The translations under genes and the position numbers were made by a program. DNA of 25,123 nt, taken from positions 1 to 25,123 of the forward strand of contig CAZMEG010000001.1 in the NCBI GenBank assembly GCA_964565205.1, in the 5' to 3' direction. Every line of letters begins with the position of its first letter. The stretch's first letter is position 1. The DNA comes from an uncultured Cytophagia bacterium (GTDB taxonomy: Bacteria > Zhuqueibacterota > Zhuqueibacteria > Oceanimicrobiales > CAZMEG01). Positions 4,225-22,830 of the stretch are shown in pieces. A model generated the notes under the pieces. The model was not told where the DNA came from and ran no database searches. It saw only the letters and a list, made by a program, of their open reading frames with translations.

Positions 4225-4337
4225 GGCTGTCCAAAAAGAGATTCGGTTTTATTTAAAGCTACAATATTCAGCGGTCACGGATCGTTTCTATCCTACATGG
4301 CTAAACGCTGTTTCTGACAATGTGTTTTTGAACAGCC
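4225..4337. mobile_element. Palindromic MITE/REP-like element, copy 1
   Basis: Terminal inverted repeats GGCTGTCCAAAAA (4225-4237) / TTTTTGAACAGCC (4325-4337), 12/13 match. Interior is clearly homologous to 17163-17255. No coding capacity. Confidence 0.7.
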
Positions 4338-12196: not shown

Positions 12197-12334
12197 AGTG
12201 GAACCAAATTAATAAAATGAGATGAACTTTTCAAAAAGATAAATAATAAACATTGGCTAATTCTTATATAAAACTATACTTGTGTTTTTACTGTTAATTA
12301 TTTATTTTTGTTTAAAAAATTCTTAAAATTTTTT

Positions 12335-12919
12335 ATGTCTGACCAATATGATCATAAAAAGAGTGATACTGAACTCTGGCATGAATTCATAAATGACAGC
12401 CAAAAAGCCTTAACCACTCTTTACATTCGTTACTATTCGCAACTTTACTCTTACGGATTAAAACTGGTGGGAGAAAAATTGATGGTGGAGGATACCATCC
12501 AGGAAATCTTTCTTTCTCTGTGGAAGAACAGAAAACAACGTTCTGTGGTTAGATCGGTGAAAGCTTATCTATTTAAGGCACTCCGATGGAAAATCATTCG
12601 TACAAGAATCAGCGAGCAAAACCGTGTGGCCAGAAATAACACATTTGCACAGGGACAGTCGGATTTTGTCCTTTCTCATGAAGAATTTCTCATCGATGGT
12701 GAGCTTAAAAATGAACAAAAAGCCCTGTTGCAAAAAGCTTTAAATAAACTTTCAAAACGTCAACAGGAAGCACTTTATTTGAAATTTTATCACGGTTTAA
12801 ACTATGAACAAATTGCTGAAGTTATGCAGATAACCAATCAGACCGTACGCAATTATGTGTTTGAAGCATTGCAAACATTGAGAAAACAATTACAAAATGT
12901 TCTGATTTCTTCCAGATAG
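12335..12919 (+). CDS. ECF sigma-70 factor (FecI-like / Bacteroidota PUL-type)
   Basis: Region 2 'LYIRYYSQLYSYG...VEDTIQEIFLSLWKNR', 'VKAYLFKALR'; region 4 'LNKLSKRQQEALYLKFYHGLNYEQIAEVMQITNQTVRNYV'. ATG 12335 preferred over TTG 12308. Confidence 0.93.
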   Translation: MSDQYDHKKSDTELWHEFINDSQKALTTLYIRYYSQLYSYGLKLVGEKLMVEDTIQEIFLSLWKNRKQRSVVRSVKAYLFKALRWKIIRTRISEQNRVARNNTFAQGQSDFVLSHEEFLIDGELKNEQKALLQKALNKLSKRQQEALYLKFYHGLNYEQIAEVMQITNQTVRNYVFEALQTLRKQLQNVLISSR

Positions 12920-13088
12920 TTTCCCCTTTAACCTCATAGAACCCCCCCAAAATTAATTAAATATATTGCAAAATGCTTCTTTTGCATAAATTTAGGGATA
13001 ATGTAAAAAAAATTAAGTACAAAACAGGATCGTCTGTAACTAAATATTAAAAACACTTAATATTCAACCAAAGTGCAGGATGATGTAA

Positions 13089-14114
13089 ATGAACGATTTT
13101 CAAAAATATTCTGTGGAAGACCTTTTGATGAATGAATCTTTCCAACTCTGGGTAATGGGGAAGGCGGAGAAAAAGGAAAGCCTTTTCTGGGAACATTGGA
13201 TTGAGGAGAGTGAGGAAAATAGAGCCAGGGCTGAGGAGGCGGCTAAAGTTATCCGACTGGTGCAATTCAAGCCTCAGGAAGTAGAGGTCAATTTAATCAA
13301 GAACGTAACTTTACTAAAAGAGAAACTCCGCAAATTCAACCACTCTTCACCACAACGCCGTCGCCTTATCCCATGGCCTATCTCCTCGTGGTATCTCAAA
13401 GTAGCTGCTGTTTTGGCTTTCATCATTTTACTTGGCTCGGGTTACTGGGGTCTTATGACCTATCTTCATTTCAAAACTGAACAAATTGTTAAGACCGATT
13501 ATGGTGAAAAAATCCGACTTACCCTGGCTGACGGTAGTACGGTCATTCTGAATGGTCATTCATCTTTGACCTACTTTAAGAGATGGTCTAAGGGTAAGGA
13601 GAGGAAGGTTACTTTAGAAGGAGAAGCGTATTTTTCCGTTACAAAGAAAGCCGAGCCTTTTCGTGTGTATACCTCCGACGGCATCATAACGGTCCTGGGT
13701 ACGGAATTTAATGTAACCAAATGGGGAAAACGAACACGCGTGGTTCTGAACCGTGGGAAGGTAGAAATTACTGTAAGAAAAGGAGGTGACACTAAAAAGC
13801 GAATTATTTTACATCCCAATCAAATGGCTCAATTTGGTTCGGAATTAGATTCCATCCGCGTAGAGCGTGTTAATTCAGAAGTTTACGCATCCTGGCGCAC
13901 AAACATGCTGATATTCGATAATACCCCTGTAAGGGAAATTCTCGAACGCATGGAGTATACTTACGGCATTGTATTTATAGTTGAGGAGATGAATATATTA
14001 AACAAGAGGGTTTCCGGTAAAATTGAAAATAACAAAGATGTCTTGCTTCGGGGCCTGGCCAATTTATTAAAACGTCCGGTATACGTGCAGGATGGAAAAG
14101 TTTTTATCAAATAG
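13089..14114 (+). CDS. FecR-family anti-sigma factor / transmembrane signal transducer
   Basis: N-terminal 'DLLMNESFQLWV', one TM helix (VAAVLAFIILLGSGYWGLM), FecR motifs 'TLADGSTVILNGHSSL', 'LEGEAYFSV', 'VLGTEFNV', 'WRTNMLIFDNTP'. Confidence 0.93.
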   Translation: MNDFQKYSVEDLLMNESFQLWVMGKAEKKESLFWEHWIEESEENRARAEEAAKVIRLVQFKPQEVEVNLIKNVTLLKEKLRKFNHSSPQRRRLIPWPISSWYLKVAAVLAFIILLGSGYWGLMTYLHFKTEQIVKTDYGEKIRLTLADGSTVILNGHSSLTYFKRWSKGKERKVTLEGEAYFSVTKKAEPFRVYTSDGIITVLGTEFNVTKWGKRTRVVLNRGKVEITVRKGGDTKKRIILHPNQMAQFGSELDSIRVERVNSEVYASWRTNMLIFDNTPVREILERMEYTYGIVFIVEEMNILNKRVSGKIENNKDVLLRGLANLLKRPVYVQDGKVFIK

Positions 14115-14158
14115 ATCCATTAAATATAATTTAATCATTAAGTATGGAGGGTAGAAAA

Positions 14159-17146
14159 ATGAAAAGGCATATCTTTAAATCCATAATCGTGGTTCTTTTA
14201 TATCTTTTAGTGGGGCATGTATTTGCTCAAAATACTCCCCCCATAGCTTCAATGGTTCATAATTCGGCTTTTACGAAAGAGAGCTCACCGAGGTTTATTT
14301 TACTTAAAGAAGCCTTAAAAAGTATCGAACAAAGGTTTAATGTAGGGTTCCTGTATTACAGTGGAGTGGGGGAGAAGATATTTTTAAAAAATAAGGTCAA
14401 ACTTTCGAATAACCTGGAGGAGACTTTGAAGAGTATTTTAAAGCCCCTCAAGTTAGTTTCCGTAAAAGTTGGCCCCAGTTCTTATGTAATAGCTTATCCT
14501 TCCCAGAAAAATGCCATCTTATCGATGTTCCAGGCGAACTCCATGCCGCAGGAAAAAGGAAAGGTTGTGGGAAGAGTCACTGACCAATCCGGTGCCCCTC
14601 TTTTTGGAACACAGGTTTTGCTGGTAGGAACTACCCTGGGAGATGTGACCGATGCAGATGGCAATTATGAAATTGCCAATGTGGAACCGGGGAATTATCA
14701 ATTACGGGCTTCTTTTATTGGCTATCGTACCCAAACCGTGGATATTACCGTGAGGGCAGGGGAAACGAGTACCCATGATTTTACCATGGTGATGGACATT
14801 CTAAACATGGAAGAGATTGTGACCACCGCCACCCGTGTGGGAAGAGAGCAAAAAGAAGCTACGACTTCTATGTCCATTGTAACAGCCAAACGAATTGAGA
14901 CTTTTCAACCTCAGAGTGTGGCTGAGATATTGCGAACCGTTCCTGGCATTCATGCCGAAGAAGGCGGTGGGGAGGTGGCTGTGAACTCCTTTGTTCGAGG
15001 GTTACCTTCTCCCGGACAATTTCGCTATCAGACACTTCAGGAAGATGGCATACCCATCCGCTCCATTCCTGGCGGATTTATCTCCGCCGAAGATGTTTTT
15101 TTCCGCCAGGATCTTAACGTACGTACCCTAGAAGTGGCCAAAGGAGGTGCATCAACCCTGTTTGGTATTAATGCTCCAGGGGGCATCATTAATTATATCA
15201 GTAAAACGGGCGGGGAGATTATGCACTCTACACTAAGGTTTACTGCAGGCGAAAAAAATTATTACCGGGCTGACTTTAATACCAATGGACCTCTTGGGAA
15301 GGATTATTATTTTAATATTGGCGGATTCTATCGTTTTGACGAAGGTCCTCGCGTCAGTGGTCTCCCGACCCAGGGTCTTCAAATTAAGGGTAATGTTACC
15401 CGGGTTATGAAATCAGGCCACCTGCGGTTTTATTTTAAGTATATGGATGATCGGGTACAATTTCTACTGCCCTTTGCTCACGATAGCCAGACTCTGAAGC
15501 CGGCTATTGATTCCGATGGTACCCATAATTCAGCCGAGGCGGCTGATTTTACAATTCCGACTCCTGGTGGCACTTTTGAATCTACCATGGATCGGGGTGT
15601 TATGACCAAAGGGGCTTCTGTTATGTTCGAATATTATAATGAGTGGGGAGAAGGCTGGTCCATTGAAAATAAAACGAAATGGATGGACTTTAAACACGAA
15701 TTTAATATTTTCATTCCGTTTGTCGCTTCTTTTGCCGATGCTTTTGCCGAGAAGTACAAACAGGATCCCAATGATCAGGCTGTTTATTCATTTACAAATC
15801 ATCCGGCCACGCCTTTTAATGCAAAAGCGGTCATGCCTCAGGGCCTTTGGGCACGCTTTCGACCCACCAAAGAACTGGTCAATCAGTTTGTTCTGCAAAA
15901 GCGCCTGGATACGGGAATTTCGACCCATGTTTTCTCTTTTGGAACATATCTCTCGCGTACCGAGGCCACCGACAAGCAAATTCGCACCACGGGTCTCTTT
16001 GAAATGGCCGATAAGCCTCGCCTGGTAGATTTGAAAATCGTACGAACCGATGGCAGTACGCTCCAGGTGACCCGTAATGGGATTCTGGAAGTTTCAAACA
16101 ACTTCTTCAATCGTGAATTTGCCAGCAATACGGTGGCCATTTTTGCTGGAGATGAAATGAAAATTAACGATCGATGGCGAGTGGATGTAGGCCTTCGTTA
16201 TGAACGTGAGACTGCCACCGTGCGGGTGGAAAAAACCTCCAATTTTGATTTTCGAACTCCCACCGACTCCTCGTTAGCTCTTACCAAGGCCGTGTTTGGT
16301 AACGGCTCCTTCATACGCCGAAACCTTACATTTGACGATTTTGGTGTGGCGGTAGGCATCAATTATGCACTCAATGAATGGGTTAATTTTTATGGTAATG
16401 GCAGCCGAGGATTCGTATTTCCGGAGTTGAGTACATTTGCCGGAAATGTTAGTATTGATTCAAGAGGCAACTTCGTGCAACCAGAGCCTAAGGATAATGA
16501 AGAGTTCTTGCAGGCCGAAGGGGGTGTGAAAGTCTCTACTACGCAATTCTCTTTGGCCCTGTCCGGATTCTGGGTAGAGATTAATAATCGTCTCCAGGGG
16601 GACATCAAGATTATCGATGGTAAGGCGGTACAGGTAACCGATGCGGTCGGAAAAAGTCGCACCTTTGGACTGGAGGCCACCGGGGCTTTCGCCCCTCAGG
16701 CCGTACCGGGTTTGCGTCTTGAATCTTCCTTGACCTTACAAGATCATGAGGCTACCGACTTTAAAATCGGTGATCTGGACCTCAGCGGCAAGGATATAAA
16801 ACGAATTCCCCAATTCATGCTCAACAGTTCTCTATTTTATGAGCGTTATGGAGTCGATTTTATGTTAAACTGGCTGGTTCTGGGAGATCGATTCGCCGAT
16901 GACGCTAATTTGTTCAAGCTGGATGAATTTGGCGTGGTCACCCTGGCTGCGGGCTATACGGTGCGATTTAGGGGTGGTCAGAGCGCCCGATTCGGTATCA
17001 ACGTTTACAATTTATTTGATTCAGAAGGATTAACCGAAGGCGATCCACGTCTGGCCACGGGGGTAGACCCAAAACAGTTCCCATTTCTTAATGCACGTCC
17101 TATCTTACCCCAGCGTGTGAAAGCCAGCTTAACTTATAATTTTTAA
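14159..17146 (+). CDS. TonB-dependent transducer (STN signalling domain + CarboxypepD_reg-like domain + plug + barrel)
   Basis: Signal peptide, STN-like segment (LKEALKSIEQRFNVGFLY), 'GRVTDQSGAPL...TDADGNYEI...ASFIGY', TonB box 'MEEIVTTA', plug 'LEVAKGGASTLFGINAPGGIINYISK', C-terminal 'LTYNF'. ATG 14159 preferred because SD GGAGG lies at 14146-14150. Confidence 0.93.
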   Translation: MKRHIFKSIIVVLLYLLVGHVFAQNTPPIASMVHNSAFTKESSPRFILLKEALKSIEQRFNVGFLYYSGVGEKIFLKNKVKLSNNLEETLKSILKPLKLVSVKVGPSSYVIAYPSQKNAILSMFQANSMPQEKGKVVGRVTDQSGAPLFGTQVLLVGTTLGDVTDADGNYEIANVEPGNYQLRASFIGYRTQTVDITVRAGETSTHDFTMVMDILNMEEIVTTATRVGREQKEATTSMSIVTAKRIETFQPQSVAEILRTVPGIHAEEGGGEVAVNSFVRGLPSPGQFRYQTLQEDGIPIRSIPGGFISAEDVFFRQDLNVRTLEVAKGGASTLFGINAPGGIINYISKTGGEIMHSTLRFTAGEKNYYRADFNTNGPLGKDYYFNIGGFYRFDEGPRVSGLPTQGLQIKGNVTRVMKSGHLRFYFKYMDDRVQFLLPFAHDSQTLKPAIDSDGTHNSAEAADFTIPTPGGTFESTMDRGVMTKGASVMFEYYNEWGEGWSIENKTKWMDFKHEFNIFIPFVASFADAFAEKYKQDPNDQAVYSFTNHPATPFNAKAVMPQGLWARFRPTKELVNQFVLQKRLDTGISTHVFSFGTYLSRTEATDKQIRTTGLFEMADKPRLVDLKIVRTDGSTLQVTRNGILEVSNNFFNREFASNTVAIFAGDEMKINDRWRVDVGLRYERETATVRVEKTSNFDFRTPTDSSLALTKAVFGNGSFIRRNLTFDDFGVAVGINYALNEWVNFYGNGSRGFVFPELSTFAGNVSIDSRGNFVQPEPKDNEEFLQAEGGVKVSTTQFSLALSGFWVEINNRLQGDIKIIDGKAVQVTDAVGKSRTFGLEATGAFAPQAVPGLRLESSLTLQDHEATDFKIGDLDLSGKDIKRIPQFMLNSSLFYERYGVDFMLNWLVLGDRFADDANLFKLDEFGVVTLAAGYTVRFRGGQSARFGINVYNLFDSEGLTEGDPRLATGVDPKQFPFLNARPILPQRVKASLTYNF

Positions 17147-17153
17147 TAAGATT

Positions 17154-17264
17154 GCGAAACGTGGCTGTCCAAAGATACAATATATAGCGGTCAGGGAGCG
17201 CTTCTATCTTATATACGGCTAAACGCTTTTCCTGACAGCGGGTTTTTGGACAGCCTCGTTTCGC
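17154..17264. mobile_element. Palindromic MITE/REP-like element, copy 2
   Basis: Inverted repeats GCGAAACGTGGCTGTCCAAA (17154-17173) / TTTGGACAGCCTCGTTTCGC (17245-17264), 19/20 match. Inner arms GTCAGGGAGCG / CGCTTTTCCTGAC. Homologous to 4225-4337. Confidence 0.72.
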
Positions 17265-17288
17265 CGCTAACATTTTTGTGACCATATT

Positions 17289-18926
17289 ATGAACTATTTA
17301 GATTGGTCTGTCATCCTGGTTTATATTGCCATGGTTATTGGCATGGCACTTTACCTGACTCGGAAGCAGCGTAACATGGATGATTATTATCTGGCTGGCA
17401 GAAAGATAAAATGGTGGCAGTCAGGTGCTTCGACCATGGCCACACAACTGGGTGCTATTAGTTTCATTTCAGCACCTGCTTTTGTGGCTCTCAAAGATGG
17501 TGGTGGACTGAAGTGGCTGTGTTACGAATTTGGCGTCCCACTGGCTCTCATTCTGGTTATGGCGTTGATCATTCCGGTTTTTCATAAACACAATTATATC
17601 AGTATTTATGAATACCTTGAAGATCGCTTTGATGGGAACACACGCACTCTGGTGAGTTTGTTATTTCAGCTTGGTCGAGGGTTGGCCACGGCCGTTTCAG
17701 TGCTTGCCGGCGGCCTCGTCCTTTCTACCGCCTTAAATATATCCACAGAAATTGCTATCATTTTAATAGGTCTGACTACCTTAGTTTATGATGTCCTGGG
17801 TGGCATTCGTGTGGTAATTTTAAGTGACGTTTTACAAATGGTGATTATAGCAGCAGGAATTGTGATTTGTGGAGGTGTAGCCCTGTATCTGGTGGGCTGG
17901 AATCACGCCTGGTCCCTGCTGGCGCCCGAACGATTTCACATCCTTGATTTTAAACACTGGGGCTTATCATCTGAAGGGAGCTATGCCTTCTGGCCTATGG
18001 CTATCGGGGGTATTTTCCTTTATGCCTCTTATTATGGATGTGATCAAAGTCAGGTACAGCGAGAACTCACCGTTGGAAGCGTGGATGATGTGCGAAAATC
18101 TTTAATGTTTAATGCCGTGGGGCGCTTTCCTTTAGTGCTGATGTATTGCCTCATGGGTGTTTTTGTGGGAGCCATTTTTATGTCACCAGATTCTTTCGGT
18201 CACGTGGCTTCGGCTATGAATATGGATGATGGCTCCCTTACCCAGTTGTTGAAAAAAGATCCCGATCGCATGGTTCCAATTTTTATTTTATCCTATCTTC
18301 CCAACGGGTTGATTGGCTTTATATTTGTAGCCATTATGGCGGCTCTCATGTCCAGTCTGGATTCTGCCTTAAACTCTTTGAGTGCGGTGACCATGCGCGA
18401 TTTTTATCAAAAGTATATTAACAAGGAGATTGACCAGCGCCGTTCTCTTATCATCTCCAAATTGATTACGTTGTTCTGGGGAATATTCTGTATCGTGGCC
18501 GCGCTAATATTTGGTGCCTTTGGTGAAGCCACCCGCCAAACTACCATTGTTTTGATTAATGCCGTAGGTAGTTTACTCTATGGACCCATTCTGGCCGCAT
18601 TTTTACTGGGTATGTTCACCAGAAAGGTGGGAGCCGGTGCAGTCAAAATGGGAGTGATTTCGGGCATATTTTTGAATATTTGTCTATGGCTGTTCACACA
18701 TATCTCCTGGTTGTGGTGGAATTTTACCGGGTTTGCCGCTTCGGTAGCTACGGCTCTTATTTTTTCCGCTTTTGTAGAGCAGACTTCCACGTCTAAAACC
18801 ACAGACGCCTTATTGTTTGAAACAGCCTCCCGGAAATGGCGCAATATTTATAAATTCGTGGTAGCTTATTTTTTCTTCATTATTCTGTTGTGTTACCTAA
18901 TTCAGCAGTCCGGATTGAGTAAATAA
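17289..18926 (+). CDS. Sodium:solute symporter (SSS/SLC5 family)
   Basis: About 13-14 hydrophobic segments; 'DYYLAGR', 'SIYEYLEDRF', 'GGIRVVILSDVLQ', 'DQSQVQR', 'AALMSSLDSALNS'. Confidence 0.93.
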   Translation: MNYLDWSVILVYIAMVIGMALYLTRKQRNMDDYYLAGRKIKWWQSGASTMATQLGAISFISAPAFVALKDGGGLKWLCYEFGVPLALILVMALIIPVFHKHNYISIYEYLEDRFDGNTRTLVSLLFQLGRGLATAVSVLAGGLVLSTALNISTEIAIILIGLTTLVYDVLGGIRVVILSDVLQMVIIAAGIVICGGVALYLVGWNHAWSLLAPERFHILDFKHWGLSSEGSYAFWPMAIGGIFLYASYYGCDQSQVQRELTVGSVDDVRKSLMFNAVGRFPLVLMYCLMGVFVGAIFMSPDSFGHVASAMNMDDGSLTQLLKKDPDRMVPIFILSYLPNGLIGFIFVAIMAALMSSLDSALNSLSAVTMRDFYQKYINKEIDQRRSLIISKLITLFWGIFCIVAALIFGAFGEATRQTTIVLINAVGSLLYGPILAAFLLGMFTRKVGAGAVKMGVISGIFLNICLWLFTHISWLWWNFTGFAASVATALIFSAFVEQTSTSKTTDALLFETASRKWRNIYKFVVAYFFFIILLCYLIQQSGLSK

Positions 18927-18934
18927 TCCCATAC

Positions 18935-21900
18935 ATGAACCCCATGACGGTAATTCACCTTATTTCGCACAATCACTGGGACCGGGAATGGATTTTTACT
19001 GCTCGCTATGTTAACACCTGGCTGGTGCCTTTTTTTGAAAATCTATTTAAAATGTTACAAAGCTATTCCGGTTATCGTTTTGTCCTGGATGGTCAGACGC
19101 TCATGATTGAAGATTATTTGAATCAGTTGCCTGAATCTGCACGAAAGGCACAGGAGGAGAAAATCCGAAAATATGTGAAATCGGGTAGACTTCTGATTGG
19201 GCCGGCTTACTTGCAGCCCGATTGGGGACTGGTGAGCGGCGAAGCTCTGGTGAGAAATTTCCTCATCGGTCACCGGATGGCGCGGCGCCTGGGTGGTGTC
19301 ATGCCGGTAGCGTGGATGCTGGACAATTTCGGTCAAATCGCTCAGGCTCCCCAAATTTGTCGGGGTTTTGAGATCGAAGGCGCTTTTGTCTGGCGAGGCC
19401 CGGAACTTCCCCCGCAAGAGATCAAGACCGAATTCTGGTGGGAATCTCCGGATGGTTCAAAGATTCTGGCCATTTACCTGATTAACAGCTACCGAAATGC
19501 CATGACCCTGGCTTTAACTCGGGAGATTGCCAGAGAAAGAATCCTCTCCCAGGTTCAAGCTCTGCTACCGCTGGCTACAACCCCCAATGTTTTACTGATG
19601 AACGGTTACGAGCAAGTGCCCTGGCCAGACGATATCCTGCCCATCCTGGAGACCCTCAATAGAGAACTGGAAGAAATGGAACCGCAGATGAAATGCATAC
19701 AAAGTACTCCAACCGAATACCTGGAGGCTATTCGACGTTGTAATCCGGATTTACCCACCCTGCAGGACTATTTTTACAGCGGTAAATATGCCCCTATCCT
19801 GAAGGGAGTTTTTTCCAGCCGAATGCACCTGAAATTACAAAATTATATCTGTCAGCAGGAACTGGAACGCTGGGCGGAACCTTTTGCCACCTGGGCCTGG
19901 CTCCTGGGTTCCCCTTACCCCCAAAATAAGCTGGAGGAAGCCTGGAAAACCCTGCTGTTAAATCATACCCACGATGACATCTGCGGCTGCTGTATCGATC
20001 CTATCGCCCGGGATATGCAAGACCGGTTTGTACAGGTTCATAACACGGTCACTCATTTAACGGAAGAAAGTTTGAGCACCATTACCCAATTCATCGATAC
20101 TCGTAAAGACAACTGCACCTTAGCTCTGGTAGTTTTCAATCCCTCATGCCATCCCCGTACCGAAGTGCTTGGATTAAACATCCATTTACCCCGGCAGATA
20201 AAATCATTTTCTATAATTAATGCGCAGGGTAAGCTCGTCCCTTATCAAATGATAAAAAGAGAAGAAGAATATGCACAATTGTACCTTTTAACCGAAGAGG
20301 TACCCTCCTTGGGCTATAAGACCTTTTACCTCAAGCCGGCAGGTTTTAACAACGAAGTGTCTGCAAAGGTACATGCGTCTGAAAAAGATGGAACCCTGGA
20401 GAACGAATGGTTAAAAGTCCAGATCCAGCCCAATGGAAGTTTGACCCTGACCAGCAAAAAGACCGGAAAGATTTATGAGAATCTTGGCTATTTTGAGGAT
20501 GGTGGGGATTGTGGCGATACGTATGACTATTCACCTCCGCCCAGGGATGTTCTCATAACCAGTTTGCAGGAAAAAGCAAAAATAACCTTAGAACTTTCGG
20601 GACCGTTGCTTGCTCGATTCCGCGTCCAACTTACTCTAAATCTGCCTGAAAGTTTAACGAAAGATAGAAAGAGGCGCAAACACAAAACCCGCGCCTTTCA
20701 TGTGATTAATTATGTGCAGCTCAGGGCACATTCCCCCTGGGTTGAAGTGACTACCGTGTTTAATAATGTGGTGAAAGATCACCGCCTGCGCATCCTCTTT
20801 CCCACCTCCATTCAGGCACAGTATTGTTGTGCCGGTGAACCATTTGACCTTGCGCATTTTTCATTATCCTCGGAAGAAATTCATGAAGAGATGCCGGAAA
20901 AACTAAAACAGCTCATGCTGGCTGGAAAGTACACGGTGCCAGTTAAGACCCGAGTCTTTCAACATTTCGTAAGCTTACAGGATGAAGAAAAAGGTCTGGC
21001 TATCTTAACTTCTGGGCTTACCGAACATGAAATTCTCCAGAAGAACACTATTGCCCTAACCTTGCTTCGCTCGGTGGGTTGGCTGGCGCGTGCGGATCTC
21101 CCCATCCGCCAGGGTGATGTGGGCCCGCAAATTTTCACCCCGGAAGCCCAGTGTCTGGGGGCGCATACTTTTTCCTATGCCATTTACCCTTACAGCGGTG
21201 CCCAGAAAGAAACTCAGATACCTAAAGAGGCGGAGAATCATAATCTTAAATTAAAAGCCGTACAAACCGTACCAAGAACTGGAGTACTGACCGGGGAGTC
21301 TTCTTTAATACGCTGGGAATCCCAGCGTCCGAATCATGCCTTTATAATGACGGCTTTAAAGCAAGCGGAAGACGGCGAGGGTGTTATTTTCCGATTTTTC
21401 AATGCATGTAATCAGAAAGCCAGTGGCGAACTCAAAATCTGGCCTGGGGCCGTGAAAGTTTTTAAGGTTAAATTAAACGAACAGATTCAGGAAGAGCTGG
21501 ATATAAAAAATGGGATGGTTCATGTAGATGCAAGAGCTAAAGAAATTGTCACCCTGAAAATTGTCAGTAAACAGAACCGAGACCTGAAAAAGCACCCAAC
21601 CAGAACAACCGCCTGGATACTCCATTCACCCATATTTGAAAAAAAACTCCCAAAGGTTCCTCAACCGCCGGTGATTACCCTGCAAGAATTACAGGCCGAA
21701 GAAAAAAGAGCTCGCACCCTCAAGGAAGAGCTGGAAAGGATCAAGCAGAAAGTTCAAGAACTGGAGGCCCGGGTGGCATCATCCACCGATAAGGCGATTC
21801 CCCTGCTGGCCAAACTTCAAAGAATGAAAGCCGGGATGGCAACGCTCAAAAGGCAATATTTTGAGGCCCATATCTCCGTACTTTTAAACAGGCAACTTTA

Positions 21901-22030
21901 CACCGAACAGGAGATAGATAGAGAATTGCGGGAGATAGGGGAAGAATATTGTATCGCTCGGACCATCAAACGGGTCAATGATTTTCTTTGTCATTATTAT
22001 GAACATTTAGTCGGCGAGTTGAATCCTTAA
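18935..22030 (+). CDS. GH38 alpha-mannosidase (MngB-like), cytoplasmic, with C-terminal coiled-coil extension
   Basis: Zn-binding 'HNHWDREW', 'FVLDGQT', 'GEALVRN', nucleophile motif 'DNFG' (D130), 'NHTHDDICGC', 'TLLRSVGWL'. No signal peptide. Confidence 0.93.
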   Translation: MNPMTVIHLISHNHWDREWIFTARYVNTWLVPFFENLFKMLQSYSGYRFVLDGQTLMIEDYLNQLPESARKAQEEKIRKYVKSGRLLIGPAYLQPDWGLVSGEALVRNFLIGHRMARRLGGVMPVAWMLDNFGQIAQAPQICRGFEIEGAFVWRGPELPPQEIKTEFWWESPDGSKILAIYLINSYRNAMTLALTREIARERILSQVQALLPLATTPNVLLMNGYEQVPWPDDILPILETLNRELEEMEPQMKCIQSTPTEYLEAIRRCNPDLPTLQDYFYSGKYAPILKGVFSSRMHLKLQNYICQQELERWAEPFATWAWLLGSPYPQNKLEEAWKTLLLNHTHDDICGCCIDPIARDMQDRFVQVHNTVTHLTEESLSTITQFIDTRKDNCTLALVVFNPSCHPRTEVLGLNIHLPRQIKSFSIINAQGKLVPYQMIKREEEYAQLYLLTEEVPSLGYKTFYLKPAGFNNEVSAKVHASEKDGTLENEWLKVQIQPNGSLTLTSKKTGKIYENLGYFEDGGDCGDTYDYSPPPRDVLITSLQEKAKITLELSGPLLARFRVQLTLNLPESLTKDRKRRKHKTRAFHVINYVQLRAHSPWVEVTTVFNNVVKDHRLRILFPTSIQAQYCCAGEPFDLAHFSLSSEEIHEEMPEKLKQLMLAGKYTVPVKTRVFQHFVSLQDEEKGLAILTSGLTEHEILQKNTIALTLLRSVGWLARADLPIRQGDVGPQIFTPEAQCLGAHTFSYAIYPYSGAQKETQIPKEAENHNLKLKAVQTVPRTGVLTGESSLIRWESQRPNHAFIMTALKQAEDGEGVIFRFFNACNQKASGELKIWPGAVKVFKVKLNEQIQEELDIKNGMVHVDARAKEIVTLKIVSKQNRDLKKHPTRTTAWILHSPIFEKKLPKVPQPPVITLQELQAEEKRARTLKEELERIKQKVQELEARVASSTDKAIPLLAKLQRMKAGMATLKRQYFEAHISVLLNRQLYTEQEIDRELREIGEEYCIARTIKRVNDFLCHYYEHLVGELNP

Positions 22031-22041
22031 AGGAAGTAAAT

Positions 22042-22830
22042 ATGGGGAAAAAACATCAAATTACAGTAGCCCTGGCTCAATTTGCTCCCCAATGGAAAGA
22101 ATTGGAAGAGAATATGGAATGGATGTTTAAAATGATAAAGGAAGCAGGTAAGGTTGGGGCTCATCTGGTGATTTTTCCAGAACTGTCATATACGGGTTAT
22201 CCTCATGAAACGACTCCAGAAGAACTTGCATCTCTGGCAGAAACGCTTCCTTCCTCTCACAGTCGAAATCTGGCCCGGGAAGCACGTAACTATAATCTGG
22301 CTGTGGTCTATGGGATGCTGGAGAAGGCGCCCCATGGAGCATACAATACGGTGGTCTGGCTGGAAAAAGACCTTCTGTTTCGTTACCGGAAGACTCATGT
22401 TCACTGGAATGAAAAGTTTACGCCTGGCGAGGAATTCCCACTTTTTCCAAGTCATCTGGGAACATGCGGGGCGTTAGTTTGCTTTGATCTGGCTTTCCCC
22501 GAGACAGCCAGAACTTTAGCGCTTAAAGGAGCCACCATGATTGTGGCTCCATCGGCAGTACCAGAAGAATTCAAAAAAATAAATCGTCAGCGGGTGATTG
22601 CCCGTGCGCTAGATAATCAAATCTTTGTATTCTACTGCAATTATACAGGTGACCATTATGGCGGTGGAAGTCTGATTGTAGGTCCTGGAGGTGACATTTT
22701 GTTGGAAGCGACAGAAGCCCCCGGTCTCTATTTTCAGACTATTGATTTAAGTCAGATCGACTACTGGCGCCATCACGAACGTATCTATGAGCATTTGCAG
22801 TTTGAATTAATATTTCACAAAAAAAATTAA
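22042..22830 (+). CDS. Carbon-nitrogen hydrolase (nitrilase superfamily, probable amidase)
   Basis: Catalytic triad E47 (FPEL), K117 (YRKTH), C147 (VCFDLAFPE); 'RALDNQIFV'. SD AAGGA at the GH38 stop. No signal peptide. Confidence 0.93.
   Translation: MGKKHQITVALAQFAPQWKELEENMEWMFKMIKEAGKVGAHLVIFPELSYTGYPHETTPEELASLAETLPSSHSRNLAREARNYNLAVVYGMLEKAPHGAYNTVVWLEKDLLFRYRKTHVHWNEKFTPGEEFPLFPSHLGTCGALVCFDLAFPETARTLALKGATMIVAPSAVPEEFKKINRQRVIARALDNQIFVFYCNYTGDHYGGGSLIVGPGGDILLEATEAPGLYFQTIDLSQIDYWRHHERIYEHLQFELIFHKKN

Follow-up and report, generated by a model that had tools for sequence, protein, structure and literature searches.

The closest described counterparts of the locus reported here are the predicted 'digeneaside' polysaccharide utilization loci (PULs) of marine Flavobacteriia (Zobellia, Maribacter, Cellulophaga), in which LacI, a non-SusC TonB-dependent outer-membrane transporter (TBDT), GH63, an SSS-family symporter and a glycerate kinase stand together without SusD (Kappelmann et al. 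2019, PMC6298971 supplement). Our locus lies on contig CAZMEG010000001.1, whose 25,123 nucleotides (nt) were analysed in full and are called the window below; the window is one whole contig (C1) of assembly G000, an 86%-complete metagenome-assembled genome (MAG) of a KSB1 bacterium. The locus consists of six head-to-tail open reading frames (ORFs) for an ECF sigma factor, a FecR anti-sigma factor, a TBDT, an SSS symporter, a GH38 enzyme and a CN hydrolase, all on the + strand. The metagenomes with the locus are from hot springs and microbial mats, and no RNA-seq run with it was found. We propose that it would serve the inducible scavenging of an exogenous solute of the mannosylglycerate (MG) family, most likely the neutral amide mannosylglyceramide (MGA). 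This full proposal seems to us evenly poised, while we hold it highly probable that the substrate belongs to the MG family.

The digeneaside PULs and the window locus are both predictions only. They share a non-SusC TBDT that works without SusD, an SSS inner-membrane transporter, a cytoplasmic hydrolase for an intact, unphosphorylated glycoside, and a small solute instead of a polysaccharide as the target. However, the hydrolase is GH63 in the PULs and GH38 in the window, the regulator is LacI in the former and an ECF sigma/FecR pair in the latter, the glycerate kinase is inside the PULs but unlinked in the window genome, the habitats are marine/algal and hot-spring mat, respectively, and only the window has an amidase. 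The preliminary description of this DNA had called the system undescribed, which went too far, because SusD-less loci with a TBDT, an SSS symporter and a cytoplasmic MG hydrolase were already predicted in the same supplement. The general design of the locus is therefore already predicted for MG, and the differences lie in the hydrolase family, in the regulators and most of all in the amidase. The amide hydrolysis step would be new biochemistry: to our knowledge, no genes that make, transport or degrade the MG amide have ever been identified, and our literature searches found no genes for making, transporting or degrading MGA, nor any link between AsnB and MG.

Three other systems bear likeness to parts of the locus. 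MngB of E. coli is a GH38 2-O-(6-phosphomannosyl)-D-glycerate hydrolase, and MngA is the permease of a phosphotransferase system (PTS). As in E. coli mngRAB, a GH38 enzyme would cleave an MG-type substrate in the cytoplasm. Unlike there, no PTS gene is present within the window, which has the SSS symporter instead, so the substrate would be unphosphorylated; the window GH38 is also about 150 residues longer than MngB and has a C-terminal coiled coil. The task proposed here for GH38, intracellular hydrolysis of MG, is also that of the GH63 MG/glucosylglycerate hydrolases, namely MgH of Thermus thermophilus and Rubrobacter and the mycobacterial GgH (PMC6608630), but their fold and family are unrelated to GH38 and the window contains no GH63. 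In the cluster for N-acetylglutaminylglutamine amide (AsnO-Ngg-peptidase; Sinorhizobium, Pseudomonas), an AsnB-family amidotransferase for a neutral amide osmolyte is clustered with a hydrolase, as in the operons described below. That solute is a dipeptide amide, whereas a glycoside amide is proposed here; no Ngg homologue is present, and the window would represent the catabolic and uptake side only.

GH38 enzyme of the locus

The GH38 gene (18935..22030, +) encodes an alpha-mannosidase-family enzyme of 1031 residues, a candidate MG hydrolase. All four GH38 domains (PF01074, PF09261, PF07748 and PF17677; N-terminal, middle and two C-terminal domains) were above their cut-offs, and the translation contains HNHWDREW (residues 11-18), WMLDNFG and HTHDD, which we take to be the GH38 metal-binding His/Asp motif and the nucleophile Asp. 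The sole NCBIfam model matched was the MngB equivalog NF007331, with 548 bits vs a cut-off of 1138, and the window GH38 is evidently not an MngB orthologue. Full-length homologues, including the C-terminal extension, were found in many phyla with 50-59% identity and 99-100% coverage.

Then, we analysed the gene neighbourhoods of 36 genomic loci with such a GH38, 35 of them not window-type. In 29 of these 35 loci GH38 directly adjoins a mannosyl-3-phosphoglycerate synthase (MPGS; above the TIGR02460 equivalog cut-off), and in 25 MPGP phosphatase (TIGR01486 family) is adjacent as well; three of the six loci without an MPGS neighbour stop at a contig edge. A three-gene operon in the order GH38-MPGS-MPGP or MPGS-GH38-MPGP recurs in L001-L036 (e.g. 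L033:4853-10240, L036:9725-15089), and the hosts of the clade come from six phyla: Chloroflexota, Acidobacteriota, Calditrichota, KSB1, Desulfobacterales and Melioribacteraceae. These operons probably pair MG synthesis with its hydrolase. No paper describing the GH38-MPGS link or the GH38-MPGS-MPGP operon was found in our literature searches. Because of the adjacency to MPGS, the clade (GH38a) would hydrolyse MG, a strong case of guilt by association that makes MG the best-supported substrate class.

The phylogenetic tree showed that the window GH38, together with that of locus L059 (support 99, long branches), is nested among the MPGS-adjacent enzymes. Neither MPGS nor MPGP is found beside the window GH38, no MPGS is present in the window or the genome, and tblastn found no homologue of the window SSS, TBDT or CN hydrolase in the 35 other loci. 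The window GH38 gene has apparently moved from an MPGS operon into an uptake locus. The enzyme also carries a C-terminal extension of about 130 residues (residues ~900-1031; window 21600-22030), a predicted coiled coil that is kept throughout the MPGS-linked clade and is missing from GH38b (~835 residues), the GH38 type of the operons in the next section. It perhaps serves oligomerisation or regulation.

Operons with the orthologous symporter

The Na+/solute symporter (17289..18926, +; 545 residues; PF00474, TIGR00813) shows 70-71% full-length identity to the SSS encoded in the AsnB-like-MPGS-SSS operons L067 and L068, and the tree placed it in one clade with the operon symporters (support 100/98). 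So the window SSS connects with a second kind of MPGS operon, in which an AsnB-like amidotransferase comes first. The AsnB-like homologues examined (57-71% identity; from KSB1, a Verrucomicrobia MAG, a Krumholzibacteriia MAG and others) have MPGS directly next in six of six cases and SSS next after MPGS in five of six, and the same order is found in the metagenome loci L087 and L089. SSS symporter and HAD phosphatase usually come next in these operons. Multi-phylum clusters of the AsnB-like-MPGS-SSS-HAD type are located at L116:932-12438, L087:463-11792, L067:913-10624, L114:2061-11558, L115:7001-12361 and L068:183-7889, and we regard them as candidate genes for the synthesis, recapture and turnover of MGA. 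An exclusive link of the SSS orthogroup to MG was considered as well and rejected, since many orthologues are solitary or stand beside GH13, XdhC, EVE and other genes.

A C69-family Ntn hydrolase (Cys2) occurs together with GH38b in L049, L067, L087 and L116, and together with a GH63 'MGH1-like' hydrolase in L114. That GH63 takes the place of GH38b beside C69 argues for functional equivalence of the two putative glycosidases. The contig of G016 has the order AsnB-like amidotransferase, MPGS (ATGA overlap), histidine phosphatase, C69-family Ntn hydrolase, GH38b and an amidase remnant; the Cys2 glutaminase nucleophile is present in the AsnB-like protein, and the C69-like protein likewise starts with Met-Cys. 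A DUF4147/MOFRL glycerate 2-kinase is found in L116, L087, L090 and L094.

The AsnB-like protein might have been a housekeeping asparagine synthetase, as there are thousands of homologues with 55-73% identity and TIGR01536 is above its cut-off. This was rejected because all six examined loci are MPGS-linked, because 39 of 41 KSB1-class genomes are without the subfamily (only the two with MPGS have it), and because E. coli AsnB and human ASNS are only distantly similar to the protein (114-139 bits). TIGR03104 is matched as well. AsnB-type enzymes convert a carboxylate into a carboxamide; applied to MG, this chemistry would therefore give MGA.

From the SSS orthology and the operon contents, three types of system can thus be distinguished. 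The MG-only type is GH38a-MPGS-MPGP, with no amidotransferase, amidohydrolase or SSS, and in three MG-only genomes the AsnB-like gene is missing altogether. The amide type is AsnB-like-MPGS-SSS-phosphatase plus a pair of amidohydrolase and glycosidase. The window type combines the amide-type SSS and the MG-type GH38 with an amidohydrolase of another kind and a sigma/anti-sigma-controlled outer-membrane receptor. Import of the amide, its deamidation to MG and cleavage by an enzyme that ancestrally acted on MG would be the simplest reading. A further cluster, L090:1571-12591, contains a GpgS-like GT2 in place of MPGS, pyruvate kinase, glycerate 2-kinase, an AsnB-like gene (42%), two GFO/IDH/MocA oxidoreductases, SSS (52%) and HAD. 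The solute that it serves may be an amide of the glucosylglycerate type or an oxidised derivative.

MGA is an established solute of Rhodothermus marinus (PMC1224877). In Bacteroidota, MPGS was found in 12 of 401 sampled genomes, among them G052, probably R. marinus. Directly 3' of the AsnB-like gene of G052 (42-43% identity; 369 bits, compared with 114-139 bits for E. coli AsnB and human ASNS) lies an SSS homologue (41% identical to the window SSS); a porin-like gene, the AsnB-like amidotransferase (42% to P0150) and the SSS homologue stand in a row at L147:6830-12068 (G052:C1, - strand), far from MPGS-MPGP. In the trees, this AsnB-like protein and the L090 variant are sister to the MPGS-linked clade, and the SSS of G052 branches deepest in the family of the window SSS. 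The AsnB-like-SSS pair of the probable R. marinus speaks for the amide assignment, short of proving it. We also looked in Rhodothermus-like genomes for MPGS with an AsnB-like neighbour, and none of 11 Bacteroidota MPGS loci had one; three other MPGS-bearing Bacteroidota genomes lack an AsnB-like gene of this kind.

Amidase and synteny of the locus

The last gene (22042..22830, +) encodes a nitrilase-superfamily CN hydrolase of 262 residues (PF00795), a candidate amidase for MGA or glyceramide. The tetrad E47, K117, E124 and C147 (E-K-E-C) is kept in five of five full-length homologues. Among solved structures, small archaeal 'nitrilases' and short-chain aliphatic amidases come closest, and the protein did not attain any NCBIfam equivalog cut-off (de_GSH_amidase, 89 bits vs 355; AguB, 89 vs 410; aliphatic amidase, 46 vs 427). 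The spacer from the SSS stop to the GH38 ATG is 8 nt, and that from the GH38 stop to the amidase ATG is 11 nt with the Shine-Dalgarno sequence AGGAAG, both lengths being exactly as first described. Inspection of the translations, made without a predictor, agreed that neither enzyme has a signal peptide: the GH38 motif begins at residue 11 and the CN-hydrolase domain at residue 8. Both catalytic domains thus begin within about the first ten residues, and GH38 and the CN hydrolase are therefore predicted to be cytoplasmic.

Only four close homologues of the CN hydrolase were found in 5.8 billion proteins, and only two orthologues in 41 related genomes. The subfamily is rare and KSB1-restricted, and all close homologues lie beside SSS, GH38, GH15-like or GpgS-like genes. 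Those of L059 and L060 are in the same locus type as the window. L055/L056 has the order SSS orthologue (78%), a 45-residue GH38 remnant, the amidase (63%) and a GT2 weakly like glucosyl-3-phosphoglycerate synthase, and in L061:374-2083 a GH15-like (trehalase/glucoamylase-type) hydrolase comes after the most distant homologue (43%), giving another amidase-glycosidase pairing. In G016:C15 (L049:8220-8678) the amidase copy is truncated, residues 1-118 including Glu47, Lys117 and Glu124 being gone; it lies directly 3' of GH38b (833 residues), beside the intact C69-GH38b pair. Truncation of the CN hydrolase where both enzymes co-occur suggests that it and C69 are redundant. The CN hydrolase hardly has the look of a generic repair amidase.

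The complete order sigma-FecR-TBDT-SSS-GH38-CN hydrolase was found again in a second KSB1 assembly (L059), and the order TBDT-SSS-GH38-CN hydrolase in a third (L050/L060, G022:C17). Identities across the syntenic loci range from 33 to 80%, lowest for the regulators and highest for the transporter: at the same positions in L059, sigma is 37% and FecR 33% identical to the window proteins, while the TBDT is 72-80% identical in L059 and L060. With this recurrence, the gene order is evidently no chance arrangement. The GH38 orthologue of L059 is open over 955 residues. As a side observation, L056:1460-1890 holds, between SSS and amidase, the 45-residue GH38 N-terminal remnant and an 80-residue fragment like the SSS C-terminus, and a 39-residue SSS C-terminal-like fragment lies 3' of the amidase in L059:11009-11125 and L060:6593-6709. 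These fragments look like scars of rearrangement.

We also considered the GH38-amidase pair as a general rule, and this was rejected, because tblastn of the six window proteins on the 36 GH38 loci found the pair in one KSB1 relative only.

Regulatory genes and genomic setting

The locus begins with an ECF-type sigma-70 factor of 203 residues (12308..12919, +) in which regions 2 and 4 are both present (Sigma70_r2, PF04542; r4_2, PF08281) and which passed the cut-off of the sigma70-ECF model TIGR02937 (85.6 bits vs 42.9). It is followed by a FecR-type anti-sigma factor of 341 residues (13089..14114, +) with both the FecR (PF04773, 68 bits) and the FecR_C domain (PF16344, 31 bits), and then by a TBDT of 1000 residues (14144..17146, +) with a signal peptide, an N-terminal extension of about 110 residues, and the Pfam domains CarboxypepD_reg, plug and barrel. 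The TBDT is not SusC-like (TIGR04056, 82.8 bits vs a cut-off of 368). The families and the common direction named in the preliminary description stood, all six ORFs being on the + strand with Pfam and NCBIfam in agreement.

The claim that this TBDT carries an STN domain fared less evenly. An extension of the right length (residues ~30-140) is in the right place, and a feature search in a language-model atlas led to STN clusters with a score of 0.91, the top 10 matches all being from one family; a PDB sequence search gave no match, and neither did Pfam. We consider it likely that the extension is an STN-like signalling domain and the transporter a signal-transducing one. The locus resembles FecIRA-type cell-surface signalling, where ECF sigma, FecR anti-sigma and a TBDT with N-terminal extension are encoded in that order. 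It differs in that the proposed ligand is a sugar-type solute and not an iron chelate, that the STN domain is missed by the Pfam hidden Markov model, and that the TBDT has an inserted CarboxypepD_reg, as in Bacteroidota-type TBDTs. A second locus of the same genome (G000:C2; L120:3418-11940) contains an SSS paralogue (72%), ECF sigma, FecR, a TBDT (28%) and a 618-residue SSS-family protein; it sits between RNase Y/DUF3179 and multihaem cytochrome/FG-GAP genes.

The window ORFs of at least 100 residues include neither SusD nor a surface glycan-binding protein nor a secreted enzyme such as an endo-enzyme, as had been noted before. The 142-nt spacer between TBDT and SSS contains a long imperfect hairpin or palindromic repeat (17154..17264, +), for which RNA folding gave a free energy of -52.7 kcal/mol (z -6.2 vs shuffles) and which is copy 2 of a repeat element at 4225-4337. 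It is possibly an attenuator, a terminator or an mRNA-stability element and could divide the locus into two transcription units. Scans for sigma-70 promoters and terminators gave no more sites than shuffled sequence. The six-gene locus is flanked by housekeeping genes (methyltransferase, murA, murB).

Discussion

From gene content, spacing, synteny, catalytic residues and neighbourhood links we infer the following course; all substrates, the sequence of the steps and the signalling in it are our reading. The solute would bind the TBDT, whose N-terminal extension would act with the FecR anti-sigma factor to release the ECF sigma factor and switch the locus on. The solute would cross the outer membrane through the TBDT and enter the cytoplasm, unphosphorylated, through the SSS symporter. 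There, the CN hydrolase would convert MGA to MG and NH3, GH38 would split MG into mannose and glycerate, and glycerate would enter glycolysis via a MOFRL glycerate 2-kinase encoded elsewhere in the genome. The opposite order of steps fits equally, with GH38 acting first and glyceramide then being converted to glycerate and NH3. The host would feed on solute from its neighbours in the hot-spring mat. No MPGS, AsnB-like or C69 gene was detected in the host genome, which does have the MOFRL glycerate kinase, and a scavenger therefore fits. The gene of this MOFRL kinase is on another contig.

The earlier proposal that a small amide-bearing alpha-mannoside, with MGA as the candidate, is imported intact has held in part. 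It is favoured by the occurrence of the GH38 clade in MPGS-MPGP operons and by the orthology of the window SSS to the symporter of AsnB-like-MPGS operons. It is also favoured by the pairs of amidohydrolase and glycosidase, which occur in AsnB-like operons and in none of the MG-only ones, and by the rare amidase subfamily that is always beside these genes. What did not hold is a broad conservation of the GH38-amidase pairing. The points that weigh against the proposal begin here: the 35 other GH38 loci are without the pair, which is confined to a few assemblies of a narrow KSB1 lineage, and in one of these (G022, L050/L060:2590-5596) the GH38 orthologue is broken into three reading frames with an internal stop, which is either assembly error or decay. 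To these are added the many SSS orthologues (64-69% identity) that are solitary or in unrelated contexts, the second SSS/ECF/FecR/TBDT locus of the genome, which has no hydrolases, and the TBDT extension, for which there was no match to Pfam STN (PF07660) even at E<=1. The 86% completeness of the host genome limits what the absence of synthesis genes can tell. In the probable R. marinus, MPGS is followed by a phosphatase only, the AsnB-like gene is elsewhere in the chromosome and not beside MPGS, and no GH38 or C69-like gene is present in the genome. Moreover, we know of no report of MGA from an organism other than Rhodothermus.

It also counts against the amide that plain MG (digeneaside-type) might be scavenged, with the CN hydrolase as a passenger or acting on an unrelated small amide or nitrile. 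The tie of the GH38 clade to MG-only MPGS-MPGP operons would suit this, as would the predicted flavobacterial loci in which TBDT, SSS and hydrolase go without an amidase, and the generic short-chain amidases and nitrilases that are the nearest solved relatives of the CN hydrolase. However, the spacer of 11 nt and the GH38-CN hydrolase order, which is kept in three assemblies, are not expected of a passenger, the amidase subfamily occurs only beside these genes, and the SSS orthogroup is linked to AsnB-containing operons and not to MG-only ones, so we regard plain MG as rather unlikely. A still smaller chance is left for the amidase as a generic metabolite-repair enzyme (omega-amidase/Nit2 or deaminated-glutathione amidase/Nit1) linked to the locus only by a common transcript. 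The weak match to de_GSH_amidase and the PDB matches to Nit2/Nit3 point that way, but 89 bits are far under the cut-off of 355, housekeeping repair enzymes are widespread while this one has four close homologues in all, 38 of 41 related genomes have no orthologue, and the host genome has other CN-hydrolase paralogues; we consider this very improbable.

The substrate could also be some other small alpha-mannoside, such as mannosylglucosylglycerate, mannobiose, an N-glycan core fragment or another amide-bearing mannoside, with nothing specific for MG. Bacterial GH38 includes alpha-1,3-mannosidases, among solved structures SpGH38, 3LVT and 5KBP come closest, the MngB equivalog cut-off is not reached, and the long branch of the window GH38 after leaving the MPGS operon could mean a changed specificity. 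Against this stand the MPGS neighbours in 29 of 35 clade loci, the orthology of the SSS to MPGS-operon symporters, and the lack of any SusD, surface glycan-binding protein or endo-enzyme, and such a substrate appears improbable. We keep to the amide of MG as the preferred substrate. With a confidence a little short of even, we suggest that the CN hydrolase is a dedicated MGA/glyceramide amidase, the SSS the first MGA transporter and the window the first MGA catabolic route.

New here are the uptake and catabolic side, the orthology of symporters across producer and scavenger loci, and the logic by which an amidohydrolase goes with an amidotransferase. MG and its amide are classic thermo- and osmoprotectants of biotechnological interest, and the locus gives clonable candidates for the outer-membrane receptor, the Na+ symporter, the amidase and GH38 MG hydrolases of a new clade, and orthology ties these to candidate biosynthetic operons. 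A testable scheme of solute turnover and cross-feeding in microbial mats would follow. If the proposal is true, a TonB-dependent system under sigma/anti-sigma control would be dedicated to a small neutral glycoside, and MGA would be made, recaptured and cross-fed far beyond Rhodothermus, hot-spring mats included.

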